Positions 44,999 through 49,924 of a stretch of DNA of 54,359 bases are shown piece by piece. Each line of letters starts with the position of its first letter. Position 1 is the first letter of the stretch. Below the pieces are notes generated by a model. That model searched no databases and was not told the DNA's origin. It worked only from the letters and a program-made list of their open reading frames with translations. The translations under genes and the position numbers were made by a program. The stretch is from a virus (Duplodnaviria > Caudoviricetes), in IMG/VR virus record IMGVR_UViG_3300037761_000240, positions 1 through 54,359 of that record; one strand, written 5' to 3'.

Positions 44999-45119
44999 GG
45001 CTTCCTCTCTGGGCCGTCGATCTGACGACTCCGCACGGTGCCAGGGGTCGGGGGGAGTAGGTCGCTCGCTTCGCTCGCGCTCACCCTGTGGGATACCTGG
45101 CGCCATGCCGAACGGTCAG
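44999..45119 (-). repeat. intergenic hairpin/RBS element, copy 1 (enlarged loop)
   Basis: CTGACCGTTCGGCATGGCGCCAGG...CCTGGCACCGTGCGGAGTCGTCAG...CAGAGAGG. Confidence 0.85.
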
Positions 45120-45706
45120 ACGGACGCGTCGTCGAGCATCCGGCGCGCTTCGGTGTTGGCGTACTCGGTGCCGAAGAATCCCCAGCAGGATTCCTCGACG
45201 GTCCACTCCTCGACACGATCGGGACTCGACCCGTCGTCCCACAGGGTGCGGCCGGTGCGGAGTCGCTCCACGATGACGCCGTAGACCTCTCCGTCGAAGT
45301 ACGCGCGCCATTCGGCGGCCTCGCCGGACAGGTCGACCGGTAGCTGGATCACGCCGACGTGGGAGCGCCAGTCGGCCGTGTCGAAGATCAGCACGAGTCC
45401 GTCACGGGTCGAGAACGTCTCGACGGTGGTGACGTTGTGCCAGATCCGGAGGTAGCGGGCGAACAGGTCGGACCCGTCGTGCACGCCGTGACGCTCGACG
45501 TACCAGCGCAGCGCGGAGATCAGCGAGTCGGCATCGGCCGGCACGTAGACCTCGCGGCCGAAGTAGGGCCGCCCGTCGTAGGGGACCATCAGGGCCGGCG
45601 CCAGTGCGTCGCCGTAGGGTTCCTGACCGGTCGTGTCCTGCTCGATGCGGGCACGCCAGCCGGGACGGTTGTCGCGGGTGATCGTGTCCACGGTGTAGTC
45701 GCTCAT
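45116..45706 (-). CDS. acidic hypothetical protein (cassette)
   Basis: bounded by repeats; GEVYG...ESCWGFFG. Confidence 0.8.
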   Translation of the reverse strand: MSDYTVDTITRDNRPGWRARIEQDTTGQEPYGDALAPALMVPYDGRPYFGREVYVPADADSLISALRWYVERHGVHDGSDLFARYLRIWHNVTTVETFSTRDGLVLIFDTADWRSHVGVIQLPVDLSGEAAEWRAYFDGEVYGVIVERLRTGRTLWDDGSSPDRVEEWTVEESCWGFFGTEYANTEARRMLDDASV

Positions 45707-45820
45707 GACTGCCTCTCTGGATCGCTAGGTGCGGTCGGCCGGGCCGGCCGATCGTCACTGTTGACGATTCCGCACGGTGCCAGGGTCGGGGGAATACCTG
45801 GCGCCATGCCGAACGGTCAG
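45707..45820 (-). repeat. intergenic hairpin/RBS element, copy 2
   Basis: near-identical to copy 3, including an extra GATCGGCCGG hairpin insert. Confidence 0.9.
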
Positions 45821-45987
45821 CGAGTCTTTCCGCCCCACATGCGGGTGAGTCTGTCTGCCGTCATGCTCCGCGCTTCCACGTTGCCGATCGGGGTCCAGCA
45901 GGACAGGCACCGGGGTCCCGGGAAGACTTCGAGATCGTCCACGGTCGTGCCGCAGTCGCGGCACACGTGAGTGTCTGTCTCGCTCAT
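45817..45987 (-). CDS. 56-aa zinc-ribbon protein (not in the ORF track)
   Basis: MSETDTHVCRDCG...RCLSCW...; stop lies in the repeat, ATGA overlap upstream. Confidence 0.7.
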   Translation of the reverse strand: MSETDTHVCRDCGTTVDDLEVFPGPRCLSCWTPIGNVEARSMTADRLTRMWGGKTR

Positions 45988-46487
45988 GACAGGTACACCT
46001 GGCCGTCGTCGCCCACGTAGGCCCCGGTGTCGCCGTACGGGTGCGACGCCGCCGTGAGTCGGTCGCCGCGCTCACCTAGGCCCATGTCCCAGAATCCGGC
46101 GCCGTGGCGGTCGCGCGTCAGTGCGAAGTTGTGCCCGATCGCCTTGCTCGGCAGCTCGGCAAGGTCGTCGCGGTTGTCGTGCAGGAACGCGACCAGCTCG
46201 GATCGGGCCCGGTCGACCGATTCGGGGTCGATGTCTTCGGGGGAATACCTGGCGTCGAGAGGTTGTCTGTCCTCGTCCACGCTGGACCAGAGAACGGTCA
46301 CCAGGTACGCGTGCAGGATTGACTCGATGCGTTCGGCCGTGGGCATCCACGGGCTGCCGGGCTCGGGTGGAATACCCGACCCGGTGACGGTGGCGTGCCC
46401 GGAGTCAGCACACGGCCGGCAGTACTTTGACAGGACTGCCTCAACTGGTGACAGGGTGCGACCGCACCCGTTCGCGCATGTGCTCAT
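45984..46487 (-). CDS. phage hypothetical protein (cassette)
   Basis: AYLVTVLWSS...GHNFALTRDRHGAGFWD. Confidence 0.8.
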   Translation of the reverse strand: MSTCANGCGRTLSPVEAVLSKYCRPCADSGHATVTGSGIPPEPGSPWMPTAERIESILHAYLVTVLWSSVDEDRQPLDARYSPEDIDPESVDRARSELVAFLHDNRDDLAELPSKAIGHNFALTRDRHGAGFWDMGLGERGDRLTAASHPYGDTGAYVGDDGQVYLS

Positions 46488-46600
46488 GACTGCCTCTCTG
46501 GATCGCTAGGCGCGGTCGGCCGGGCCGGCCGATCGTCACTCTGACGATTCCGCACGGTGCCAGGGTCGGGGGAATACCTGGCGCCATGCCGAACGGTCAG
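46488..46600 (-). repeat. intergenic hairpin/RBS element, copy 3
   Basis: spans upstream stop to downstream ATG. Confidence 0.9.
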
Positions 46601-47064
46601 TCTCGGCCGAACGCGTCGCCCGTGTAGGTGTCAAGGTCGGCGTCGTCGTAGCACCCGGATTCGACGCACTCCCAGAGGTAGAGCCGGCGTGTGCCGGATC
46701 GGTCGAGATCGACCGGGAAGCCTGCCGCGATGTCCTCGACGGTCGCCGCGAGCCTGCCGGCACCCTCGGGACCGATGAACAGTGGCGCGTCGGCCCGGCC
46801 GTCGATGTCGGCGTTCGCCGCGAGGTTCCGTAGGTCCTCGGAGTGGCGGAAGTCCAGCCATGCCGTCTCGTAGTCCTGCTGGTCACCTGCAACGGTCGCA
46901 CCTTCGAACAGATATTCGGCCGCGTCGACCAGCTCGCGGCCGGCATACTGCACGGCGTCACGGAGACTGGGCAGGAAGGGGAACCCATCCGAGTCGGCCG
47001 CGTCGGGACCATACCCGGCAAGTCCGAACGCCACGTGATAGTGGCGGGTCGTCGTGTCGCTCAT
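46597..47064 (-). CDS. acidic hypothetical protein (cassette)
   Basis: bounded by repeats. Confidence 0.8.
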   Translation of the reverse strand: MSDTTTRHYHVAFGLAGYGPDAADSDGFPFLPSLRDAVQYAGRELVDAAEYLFEGATVAGDQQDYETAWLDFRHSEDLRNLAANADIDGRADAPLFIGPEGAGRLAATVEDIAAGFPVDLDRSGTRRLYLWECVESGCYDDADLDTYTGDAFGRD

Positions 47065-47147
47065 GTCTGCCTCTCTGGATCGTCACTCTGACGATTCCGC
47101 ACGGTGCCAGGGTCGGGGGAATACCTGGCGCCATGCCGAACGGTCAG
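47065..47147 (-). repeat. intergenic hairpin/RBS element, copy 4
   Basis: 83-bp version without the insert. Confidence 0.9.
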
Positions 47148-48280: not shown

Positions 48281-48468
48281 CGCTGATGTCTCTGATGTCG
48301 GAGATGGTGGTGATGTCCACAGTTGTCCCAGTTGTCCCAGTTGTCCCAGTTGTCCTGGTATGTCCCAGTTGTCCGATTCTCGTCTCGTGCCGGCCGTGAC
48401 GTCGTGACAGCCGTGACGTCGTGACAGTCGTGCCGGCCGTGACGTTGTGACAGCCGTGCCGGTATGAC
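48281..48468 (+). repeat. short tandem repeats (CAGTTGTCC x4-5; GCCGTGACGTCGTGACA x3)
   Basis: directly visible 9-bp and 17-bp periodicities. Confidence 0.85.
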
Positions 48469-48469
48469 G

Positions 48470-48757
48470 TCAGATCGTGACCAGACGCGGCCGGCCGATC
48501 GGCGCGCGCGCGTCCACGCGATAGGACACGGATAGCGCGTCGTCACGGTGGACTAGGGACAGGTGCAGCACAGTGCCGGCCGGTGCGGCCGTCGACAGGA
48601 TGTCTGCTGCGATGCGGCCGGCATGGTGAAGACTCACCAGTCCGTGCACGTTCGCGGGCAGGGTGAAGGTTGGGACCTGACGGCCGCCGGACTGCCAACC
48701 GTCCACGGCTGGTCCGATGACGTTAGCGGTCACGGTCACGTCGTGCGACAGGGTCAT
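48470..48757 (-). CDS. hypothetical protein (cassette)
   Basis: repeat-supplied RBS. Confidence 0.7.
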   Translation of the reverse strand: MTLSHDVTVTANVIGPAVDGWQSGGRQVPTFTLPANVHGLVSLHHAGRIAADILSTAAPAGTVLHLSLVHRDDALSVSYRVDARAPIGRPRLVTI

Positions 48758-48834
48758 GACTGCCTCTCTGGGACGTCACTCTGACGTTCCCGCACGGCGG
48801 CCGGAGCATGCCGGCCGCCATGCCGGCGCGTCAG
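48758..48834 (-). repeat. intergenic hairpin/RBS element, copy 6
   Basis: CTGACG..CCGGCATGGCGGCCGG-CATGCT-CCGGCCGCCGTGCGGG..CGTCAG. Confidence 0.85.
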
Positions 48835-49454
48835 TGTGCGAACGGGTCTGGGATGCCGGCCGCCGCGTCCACGATGTCGTCATACGACGTCGGTCCGTCC
48901 GAGACGGGACCGATGAGCGCAATGCCCAGTAGGTCCGTCGCTGCCTCATGCGCGAGCATGCCGGCCGGCGCGTCAGTGCTCCACCTGACGTAATGGCGTG
49001 TCAGTGTGTCGTGCGCCCCGGCTGCGCCGGCACGGACCGTCTGTGTGACCGTGACGTGCCACAGACGCTGTCCGTCCTCGTCCGTGACGTTGTCCACGGT
49101 CACCCTGGCGTCGATGACGCGTGACGGTCCGTCGACAGGTGACACGTAGTCCGTACGGTTGGCGTCTGTCCTGTCGAGTAGCCACGTCGACAGCATGTCC
49201 AGTGCCATCCGATCGGCCGTGTCCGGCATCGTGGCATAGGTCCGTGCGATGTCGGCCGCTACCTCGTCGTAGTCCACCTTGGCGCCCGACGCCAGTGCTG
49301 CGAGCACGTGACCGATCGTGCCGGGGGACTGGTAGGCGGCAGCGATGGCCGCTGCCACGTCGTCCGAGATCTCGTCTCGGCCGTAACGGTCCGTCACCTG
49401 TGCCACGGCGTCTGTCCAGCTCGCGTGACGCGTGCGGTTTGTGATCTTGCTCAT
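48831..49454 (-). CDS. hypothetical protein (cassette)
   Basis: MSKITNR..., bounded by repeats. Confidence 0.75.
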   Translation of the reverse strand: MSKITNRTRHASWTDAVAQVTDRYGRDEISDDVAAAIAAAYQSPGTIGHVLAALASGAKVDYDEVAADIARTYATMPDTADRMALDMLSTWLLDRTDANRTDYVSPVDGPSRVIDARVTVDNVTDEDGQRLWHVTVTQTVRAGAAGAHDTLTRHYVRWSTDAPAGMLAHEAATDLLGIALIGPVSDGPTSYDDIVDAAAGIPDPFAH

Positions 49455-49533
49455 GGTGTCCTCTCTGGTGTCCGTCACTCTGACGGTCCCGCACGGCGGC
49501 CGGAGCATGCCGGCCGCCATGCCGGCGCGTCAG
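49455..49533 (-). repeat. intergenic hairpin/RBS element, copy 7
   Basis: near-identical to copy 6. Confidence 0.85.
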
Positions 49534-49847
49534 TCGTCGCTGTCGATCACAAACGTCGTCGCGGCGATCATGTCGAGTAGCTCTGGCACCGGTCGCCATT
49601 GCTCCCAGCCGGCCGCTGTGGTGATCCGCACGTATGCCGTCATGACGTCCTGTCCGGTGCGCGTATAGGCCGCACTGTCGGCCGCGTCTGTGAAGTGACG
49701 CAAGGTGCCGGCCGACACACCGTCCGCCGCACTGTCGTCGACCCATCGGGCCCGTGCGCCCCGGATCACACCGTCGACCAGGGTGGACAGGTGCACTGCC
49801 ATGTGGACTGTCAGTGCCGGCCGCGTCGCTGTCGTCGTGTCGCTCAT
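49530..49847 (-). CDS. hypothetical protein (cassette)
   Basis: bounded by repeats. Confidence 0.75.
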   Translation of the reverse strand: MSDTTTATRPALTVHMAVHLSTLVDGVIRGARARWVDDSAADGVSAGTLRHFTDAADSAAYTRTGQDVMTAYVRITTAAGWEQWRPVPELLDMIAATTFVIDSDD

Positions 49848-49924
49848 GTCTGCCTCTCTGGGACGTCACCCTGACGTTCCCGCACGGTGCACCGGTCGGC
49901 CGGTGCGCCATGCCGACGCGTCAG
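49848..49924 (-). repeat. intergenic hairpin/RBS element, copy 8
   Basis: inner stem GCACCGG-CCGA-CCGGTGC. Confidence 0.85.

Follow-up and report, generated by a model that had tools for sequence, protein, structure and literature searches.

What joins the small accessory genes of an uncultured virus into one row, and does the joining sequence act as DNA or as RNA? The question is raised by IMG/VR record IMGVR_UViG_3300037761_000240, a linear sequence of 54,359 bp (GC 65%) that was analysed over its full length and is called here the window, in which a row of small minus-strand genes is punctuated by eight copies of one intergenic element. The observation of eight structured connectors is confirmed: the element is a real, structured and lineage-specific connector of phage accessory genes, combining the stop codon of one gene, a long imperfect hairpin, a shorter alternative hairpin, a fixed ribosome-binding site (RBS) and the start codon of the next gene. 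Its anatomy, covariation, position and orientation, like the variant junctions and the lack of promoter, terminator and recombinase signatures reported below, were computed directly. As to its role, we hold at about even chances that it is an intercistronic mRNA hairpin for processing or stability, coupled to a standard translation start and also used as a crossover point. Phage junction signals are known in outline, namely the start-associated sequences (SAS) and their extended form (ESAS), the promoter early stem-loops (PeSLs) and the RNase III sites of T7; the form described here is new.

Repeat finding and alignment placed the elements (E1 to E8, Table 1) on the minus strand at the positions given by the original prediction, an earlier reading of the bare sequence whose interpretation was borne out in part. 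As that reading had also claimed, every element spans the interval from the TGA of the upstream gene to the ATG of the next one on the coding strand (8/8). The stop context is TGA-C in all eight, the stop-to-start length is 73–120 nt, and pairwise identity over this length ranges from 68 to 98%. E1 to E4 are mutually 84–98% identical (95–98% among E2, E3 and E4), E6 and E7 share 90%, and E5 and E8 stand apart; the eight copies thus amount to about four distinct types, with subfamilies clustered by position. The repeat even runs into the following gene, with ATGAGC after 6/8 elements, ATGAGCGAC after 4/8, and 17 identical bases after both E4 and E8, whose downstream genes are unrelated. The enclosed genes were proposed to be mutually unrelated, and no pair among 15 proteins was indeed matched by BLASTP at E<0.1.

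Folded on the coding strand, each element forms a long imperfect stem of 23 positions in which 164 of the 183 alignment cells are standard pairs (89.6%). Eleven pairs never vary, and in six (11 cells) both partners have changed. Neither the pairing nor the covariation score was equalled in 500 shuffles, and only 29–41% of cells remained paired when the 3' partners were shifted by 1–3 columns. The original prediction had described a stem of about 24 bp starting at the stop codon and closed by CUGAC/GUCAG in most copies: the anchorage at the stop codon stands, the stem measures 23 positions and is imperfect, and the closure is complete in 6/8 copies, with E2 and E5 departing from it. The other predicted details were all recovered in the alignment, namely the invariant core GGCAUGG/CCGUGCG with its U-G pair (8/8) and its unpaired G/G position, the four compensatory forms of the inner stem, and a loop ranging from 4 to 50 nt. 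Column 20-83 is C/A in 6/8 copies. Compared with dinucleotide shuffles, the hairpin energies gave z-scores of -2.9 to -6.9, shuffles as stable as the native sequence being found in 0/200 trials for seven copies and in 1/200 for E1. The presence of an invariant core within a covarying stem suggests that a factor reads the core sequence.

The 3' basal strand of the long stem can alternatively pair with the next 8–10 bases, forming a short hairpin that abuts the RBS box and that is mutually exclusive with the full long hairpin. This second hairpin, a near-perfect palindrome with a fixed 3-bp spacer, is paired in 60 of 63 cells (95%, with 8–66% in slid controls), and two of its pairs change on both sides. 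In E5, one two-sided change keeps the short hairpin and weakens the base of the long stem. According to the predicted energies, the combination of core and short hairpin lies within about 6 kcal/mol of the full long hairpin in 6/8 copies; in E2 and E3 the two-hairpin state is about 13–14 kcal/mol lower, the folded segment including a 30-nt insertion that itself forms a GC hairpin. Insertions spare both helices, with 50 nt in the loop of E1 and these 30 nt placed between the short hairpin and the RBS of E2 and E3. Two-sided changes among divergent copies (68–80% identity), together with such helix-sparing insertions, argue for selection on the fold.

Beyond the helices, each element ends, as originally predicted, on a fixed RBS, the box CAGAGAGG being followed by about five bases and ATG in 8/8 copies. 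The resulting translation-start module reads CAGAGAGG, five bases, AUG and often AGC GAC. Ten minus-strand copies of CAGAGAGG were counted within 45–50.6 kb and one elsewhere (3.3 expected), and the looser pattern GAGAGG-N4-7-ATG has 10 minus-strand and two plus-strand occurrences. Both unit-leading genes (starts 50538 and 48053) possess the box without the long hairpin, and the stability of their leaders is ordinary; the hairpin module therefore belongs to junctions that follow an upstream gene. The accessibility of the Shine-Dalgarno (SD) box and AUG was modelled with and without a ribosome on the stop codon, and a switch that hides the SD was rejected, the unpaired probabilities shifting in differing directions among the eight copies. 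A selenocysteine insertion sequence (SECIS) or another read-through signal was rejected as well, since the stop-to-ATG distances modulo 3 (0, 2, 1, 1, 1, 1, 0, 1) leave no common frame.

The elements match no Rfam family, in line with the proposal that they could be an undescribed RNA motif. In gathering mode, Rfam returned nothing over the whole window besides the two tRNAs, and in E-value mode over 43000–51500 it returned three chance-level miRNA/snoRNA rows, all outside the elements. A covariance model (R1) was built from the eight copies, which by construction are the only sequences of the window above 67 bits. Exact-pattern scans returned chance-like loci only: 2 in IMG/VR, without companion motifs, 12 in metagenome contigs, with R1 scores of at most 17.1 bits, and 6 in genome contigs, where one locus at 30.5 bits was rejected as the end of a Rhodanobacter gene followed by a terminator. 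Likewise, R1 gave nothing above 17.1 bits in the first 21 of 80 loci related through their helicase, and the closest helicase relatives (L010–L015) hold no comparable array. The sequence family appears confined to this record within the viral, metagenome and genome collections scanned, from which very near records may be missing. Word searches of the literature, most subscription journals lying outside their coverage, brought up no account of a two-state hairpin that is anchored at the stop codon and continuous with a fixed RBS. Among the helicase relatives, L013 carries at 15.7–16.1 kb a non-coding cluster of about eight GGTGGCAGATG copies on both strands that resembles iterons or operators.

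More distant viruses carry connectors of their own. G001, a complete 62.6-kb virus with terminal repeats whose helicase is 44% identical to that of the window, has an array of five copies of a different connector with the same build (L017 3077–6669, equivalent to 47.7–51.3 kb of its record): the stop codon lies inside CUGACC (4/5), and is followed by a stem of 18 bp, a small loop that holds a GAGAGAGG box, ATG and conserved first codons (ATGACGAAC). This stem has four invariant G-U pairs and is more stable in the sense (-20 to -28 kcal/mol) than in the antisense direction (-11 to -21 kcal/mol), a strand-specific folding seen only in this analogous family and not in the window's own. In the IMG/VR pattern scan, the connector of G001 was found in the G001 record only. 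In the cultured Streptomyces phage Zemlya (L107, 44.6–49.9 kb), there is a covarying repeat in 7 of the 10 gaps surrounding the OCR-like gene 70. It is composed of a 5-bp stem and a 6-bp stem capped by the T-loop-like TTCGAGT, with 77/77 cells paired and four pairs changing on both sides. This repeat, which looks like a tRNA acceptor stem plus T-arm, matched nothing in Rfam in E-value mode, and word searches on the intergenic repeats of the Zemlya group returned nothing on point; it could be a tRNA-like processing signal. Finally, in Gordonia phage Sukkupi, also cultured (L108, genes 79–93), each of the seven gaps of at least 40 nt holds a GC-rich hairpin, and the same RBS box, CGAAAGGATCGA, precedes ATG in 6/7 of them. 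Because these three phages carry their own structured spacers in equivalent gene rows, structured stop-to-start spacers look like a recurrent, lineage-specific device of such phages.

Another signal of the region bears on whether the elements act as DNA. With one mismatch allowed, the window has 18 copies of the 13-nt motif GGAATACCYGGCG, all of them on the plus strand and between 40155 and 48259, against 0.14 expected. Five of the 18 copies lie in the loops and 5' arms of E1 to E5, and E6 to E8 have none; others form pairs 26–27 nt apart (40155/40182 and 44797/44824), a tandem series of seven (48127–48259) or single copies inside genes (43686 and 46242). Two copies flank a promoter-like site at 44817–44788, a minus-strand site that is the sole sigma-70-like match in 43–52 kb (TAGACA-18-TACCAT), located upstream of gene 44304–44744. 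GGAATACCYGGCG resembles polar operator or 'stoperator'-type sites and is probably a separate signal for protein binding that overlaps one connector subfamily. Part of the element may have a DNA-level role, especially GGAATACCYGGCG in E1 to E5 and the short hairpin, whose near-perfect palindrome and 3-bp spacer resemble those of a dimer operator.

A small but real probability goes to the wider explanation that the elements as a whole are DNA-level sites, i.e. operators, 'stoperator'-like roadblocks or ESAS-like promoter/operator units, the hairpin reflecting the inverted-repeat binding sites of a phage regulator. The hairpins are indeed about equally stable on both strands (sense -32 to -45, antisense -32 to -46 kcal/mol), and the ESAS of Cluster K phages, which hold SigA-like -35/-10 hexamers, are now read as SigA promoters with an inverted-repeat operator (PMC11373665). 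However, E6 to E8 keep the hairpin without GGAATACCYGGCG, no promoter-like hexamers occur inside the elements, and the hairpin is missing in front of both unit-leading genes, the expected place for an operator. The two halves also change together, in six pairs of the long stem and two of the short one, as expected of pairing rather than of a fixed recognition sequence, and an arm spacing of 4–50 nt, which a dimer bound to duplex DNA would not tolerate, fits a folded single strand.

The published SAS/ESAS box of Cluster K mycobacteriophages is an asymmetric sequence over the RBS of non-structural genes, 3–9 bp from the start codon, in one orientation, often behind an inverted repeat and with a function given as unknown (PMC3203893; PMC7302621), with look-alikes in Microbacterium phages (PMC7302621). 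The window's box resembles it in overlapping the RBS close to the ATG, in having a single orientation, in occurring among non-structural genes and in following an inverted repeat, and differs from it in sequence. The ESAS arms are described as 17 bp long and imperfect, with departures that do not support RNA pairing (PMC3203893), whereas those of the window extend over 23 positions, covary, include the stop codon and show no promoter. A fold in the single strand is favoured here because of the variable arm spacing, the two-sided changes and the helix-sparing insertions, and because the hairpin occurs only at internal junctions, is oriented with the genes and has a sense-specific analogue in G001.

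Strong hairpins behind stop codons also recall transcription terminators. Stems of -32 to -45 kcal/mol directly after each stop, and a small basic protein (pI 12) encoded in the row, would fit a terminating or attenuating role between cassettes, which a phage antiterminator, for example the 53-aa protein of gene 44837–44998, might override, and the GC-rich hairpins of Sukkupi are followed by T-rich runs in the same context. We nevertheless regard this explanation as very unlikely. The long stems of the window are followed by AGUGACG and similar sequences, with a U-tract after 0/8 of them, and the terminator scan was empty in all elements, its three terminator-like sites lying outside. Mycobacterial RNA polymerase reportedly requires a U-tract at intrinsic terminators. 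No element contains a sigma-70-like promoter either, and transcription would find none to restart from in the 10–41 nt between hairpin and RBS.

The history of the array was approached through 12 public DNA runs (sediment and soil metagenomes, none recorded as RNA) that carry parts of the stretch; the contigs of four sediment runs were compared with 43000–51500 at 85% likeness. Five of the 15 listed joints touch an element, the elements making up about 9% of this 8.5-kb stretch. The joint from 49524 to 49924 (one run, 30 nt on the shorter side, 11 new letters between) leads from the 5' arm of E7 to where the gene preceding E8 ends, with loss of gene 49530–49847. The joint from 47686 back to 45115 (two runs, 51-nt side) sets an E5-type connector directly after gene 45116–45706, and that from 45820 to 45988 (one run, 56-nt side) removes exactly the 56-aa gene 45817–45987, after which gene 45984–46487 ends on the CUGAC of E2. 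Two further joints, from 49496 back to 48907 and from 48661 to 49460, have one end each in E7. Beyond the 15, a sixth joint, from 48770 back to 47636 (two runs, 4 letters between), brings the start of gene 48470–48757 behind an E5-type connector. Microhomology at the joints is limited to 0–4 nt, or new letters intervene, so that a simple collapse of identical repeats does not explain them. Low-likeness or short-sided joints can stem from other organisms or from repeats. With this in mind, there is moderate evidence that gene content and order between connectors vary among co-occurring variants. Fixed gene content between the repeats, which the original prediction had named as an argument for mere duplication scars, was not what the contigs indicated: units appeared to have been lost or re-ordered, and joints fell within the repeats or beside them. 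Replacements and skips occur in the sediment contigs just downstream of the array as well, at 43500–44750, where there are no connectors (for instance 43672 to 44338 with 237 other letters between).

Are the repeats then recombination joints, duplication scars or a selfish repeat spread by gene conversion, the RBS being copied along without any role in expression? This would agree with the high identities within position-clustered subfamilies (E2/E3/E4 and E6/E7), with an identity that reaches the first codons of unrelated genes, with the variant joints located in the repeats, and with a half-element relic inside gene 48831–49454. We judge it quite unlikely as the full account, given that divergent copies (68–80%) keep their pairing through two-sided changes, insertions avoid the helices, an unrelated connector of the same build exists in the distant virus G001, and no transposase or recombinase was found in the 72% of the genome that the record covers. 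The relic (48953–48978) consists of an E6-type loop and 5' arm with an 8-nt deletion, includes an out-of-frame TGA, and may mark an old fusion of two cassettes; the joint from 49496 back to 48907 falls near it.

Two known families of repeats invite comparison at this point. The PeSLs of T4-type phages couple a strong sigma-70 promoter to a terminator stem-loop among non-essential genes, and the insertions, deletions and replacements that distinguish close relatives are ascribed to recombination between PeSLs (PMC2839356). The window's elements share with this description the format of small repeated intergenic cassettes, and variant joints lie in the repeats in contigs of 85% likeness, some of them short-sided; the elements differ from PeSLs by carrying an RBS module instead of a promoter and a U-tract. 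The repetitive extragenic palindromes (REPs) and the bacterial interspersed mosaic elements (BIMEs) built around them are repeated imperfect palindromes in enterobacterial operons, where they can stabilise the upstream mRNA. REPs are shorter than the window's connectors, occur genome-wide and are linked to REP-associated tyrosine transposases (RAYTs, of the Y1 type). The likeness lies in repeated imperfect palindromes between operon genes; the window's repeat differs in being limited to one gene row, and the RAYT family PF01797 had no match in the 54-kb record, which is 72% complete according to CheckV.

Integron attC sites, folded in single-stranded DNA and recombined by a dedicated integrase, had been put forward in the original prediction as a second analogy, and this kinship was not supported; we find it barely credible. 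The resemblance is one of form: the elements are imperfect hairpins with a conserved base, unpaired positions and variable loops, they bound promoterless units of one or two genes, all in the same orientation, and the cassette content varies between samples. Against this, neither the tyrosine recombinase family PF00589 nor the resolvase family PF00239 had a match in the same record, and PF00589 had none in the complete genome of G001; the stem base CTGAC/GUCAG is unlike the attC core-site pattern; the RBS and start codon of the next gene lie within the repeat; and one indel, the 56-aa gene 45817–45987, does not have an element at each end. For want of a promoter, a U-tract and, in the record, a recombinase, the PeSL, terminator and attC models are all disfavoured, and membership of the attC, PeSL, ESAS, REP/RAYT, intrinsic-terminator and SECIS classes was rejected, each lacking at least one defining feature.

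The closest working precedent would be, by analogy, the early transcript of T7, which host RNase III cuts at five sites into mono- and dicistronic mRNAs (PMC4858673). T7 sites and window elements are alike as long imperfect intercistronic hairpins, the T7 early transcript including an Ocr-type gene; the window's stem, as modelled, comprises some two helical turns, is interrupted by mismatches and separates genes of the same strand. There is no sequence relation, the stem base of the window contains the stop codon, a second exclusive hairpin and the RBS are part of the repeat, and the host is probably an actinobacterium. The early mRNA of phage phiC31 is said to undergo RNase III-like processing, and a word search for phiC31 returned nothing on point.

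On this precedent, the eight repeats would be intercistronic connectors inside one or two leftward transcription units of accessory genes. If they are transcribed through and fold in the RNA, as we infer, the long hairpin would be an RNA-level punctuation signal, serving as a double-stranded substrate of a host RNase III-type enzyme or, alternatively, as the place where a core-reading factor docks. Once the message is cut or protected there, the upstream cistron would have the core hairpin at its end, and the downstream one would then begin with the second hairpin, refolded right at the standard RBS, whose fixed box would give each cassette the same translation start. Since the connectors are 68–98% identical over 73–120 nt, they could double as crossover points at which gene units are lost, gained and re-ordered, recombination being the putative cause of the variants.

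Several points weigh against this reading. The covariation comes from eight paralogues of about four types in one genome, related copies can beat shuffles without any structural constraint, and no homologous copy elsewhere allows a cross-genome covariation test. The near-equal stability of the hairpins on both strands does not single out the RNA, the modelled SD/AUG accessibility changes inconsistently between the two folds, and the strand-polarised GGAATACCYGGCG, present in 5/8 loops and also outside the elements, points to some protein binding at the DNA level. The joints are assembled contigs of mixed communities at 85% likeness, repeats attract mapping artefacts, and the shorter side of one key joint measures only 30 nt. 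RNase III and integrase genes were not seen in the 72% of the genome present in the record, and a recombinase or nuclease could sit in the missing 28%.

A bolder version of the same idea, unlikely to be right as a whole, would make the connector a two-state device of RNA punctuation. The stop-anchored long hairpin would be cut beside its core by host RNase III or a core-reading factor, the upstream cistron would end in a protective core hairpin, and the released 3' strand would form the second hairpin exactly where the downstream cistron now begins, next to a standard RBS. The repeats would serve as crossover sites needing no integrase, turning the row into a recombination-driven 'phage integron' for accessory and anti-defence genes, and the G001 hairpin and the T-arm-like repeat of Zemlya would be lineage-specific versions of a class widespread in phages of high-GC hosts.

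Rows of accessory genes are where phage anti-defence genes accumulate and turn over, and how such genes are evenly expressed and exchanged is poorly understood outside T7 and T4. With stop, structured RNA, standard RBS and start united in one compact connector, it would become understandable how unrelated genes can enter a common operon and remain expressed. The connector is a concrete, clonable object for RNA-processing tests in actinobacterial hosts and a practical marker of cassette boundaries in metagenomic phage genomes, and synthetic operons in high-GC bacteria may use it as a portable insulator. Were it no more than a recombination scar, it would be an ordinary feature of phage mosaicism.

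Table 1. Positions of the connectors and of the associated features in the window. Bit scores refer to R1, which was built from the same eight copies.
Feature	Position	Strand	R1 (bits)	Description
E1, subfamily A	44999-45118	-	82.2	50-nt loop insertion, short second hairpin, CAGAGAGG, ATG at 44998
E2, subfamily A	45707-45819	-	74.9	30-nt GC-hairpin insertion before RBS; stem closes GUCAA
E3, subfamily A	46488-46599	-	86.1	97% identical to E2, same 30-nt insertion
E4, subfamily A, compact form	47065-47146	-	97.4	98% identical to E3 over shared columns
E5, most divergent	47618-47690	-	67.6	outer helix weakened; second hairpin kept, two-sided change GCCA/UGGC
E6, subfamily B	48758-48833	-	99.9	inner stem GGCCGG/CCGGCC, column 20-83 fully paired
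E7, subfamily B	49455-49532	-	89.7	90% identical to E6
E8	49848-49923	-	91.1	inner stem GCACCGG/CCGGUGC, 4-nt loop
RBS box CAGAGAGG without long hairpin	48054-48070	-		before gene 47688-48053, first after the non-coding repeat block; fold z -0.85
RBS box CAGAGAGG without long hairpin	50539-50551	-	16.4	before gene 50356-50538, head of the row; fold z 0.45
Row of small genes joined by elements	44837..50538	-		open reading frames, GC content at third codon positions (GC3), BLASTP
Row genes, right half	50356-50538, 50112-50414, 49921-50124, 49530-49847, 48831-49454, 48470-48757	-
Row genes, left half	47688-48053, 47144-47617, 46597-47064, 45984-46487, 45817-45987, 45116-45706, 44837-44998	-
Non-coding block, three tandem-repeat families	48054-48469	.		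splits subfamily B (E6-E8) from A and E5 (E1-E5)

The window encodes a DNA polymerase, a primase/helicase, helicases, an exonuclease and an Rnl1-type RNA ligase. At the DNA level, the array region holds short pieces matching Streptomyces and Gordonia phage genes; the best likeness of the primase (about 30% identity) is to Mycobacterium phages of about 59–60 kb, including Henu3 of cluster K4 (PMC12699233), and the next-best matches are to Microbacterium, Arthrobacter and Gordonia phages. On the grounds of these DNA and primase matches, the uncultured virus resembles actinophages and its host is probably an actinobacterium. The leftward gene row extends from about 50.5 kb down to 40.6 kb and is backed by GC3.

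The cassette proteins themselves are poorly connected to known families. Pfam gave no family for 10 of them, PHROGs matched them to families of unknown function only, and tblastn of the 15 proteins against 87 loci returned no match, nor did genes 45116–45706 and 47144–47617, used as queries, retrieve a related locus. The one pointer to early anti-host genes, as proposed in the original prediction, is gene 47144–47617, which has a Streptomyces-phage homologue annotated as OCR-like; its own PHROG family is of unknown function, and its product had no sequence match in PDB at E<=1. The last gene served by a connector, 44837–44998 on the minus strand, encodes the 53-aa protein mentioned above, which is rich in arginine (pI 12). 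It has no Pfam or PHROG family and fell only into unnamed viral clusters of the Atlas, with scores below 0.9; it is a candidate nucleic-acid binder.

The non-coding block 48054–48469 may function as origin, partition site or regulatory hub. Its units are a 40-bp repeat (3.6 copies) that carries GGAATACCYGGCG, the 9-bp TGTCCCAGT (6.6 copies) and a 17-bp repeat (2.8 copies). The 40-bp unit also includes the 11-mer GATCGGCCGGC of the 30-nt GC-hairpin insertions, which has eight occurrences in the window; the insertions themselves, at 45735–45764 (E2) and 46516–46544 (E3), are flanked by duplicated CGATC. Elsewhere in the window, at 27973–28127, the two tRNA genes lie side by side as a tandem duplication of 80 nt (93% matches).

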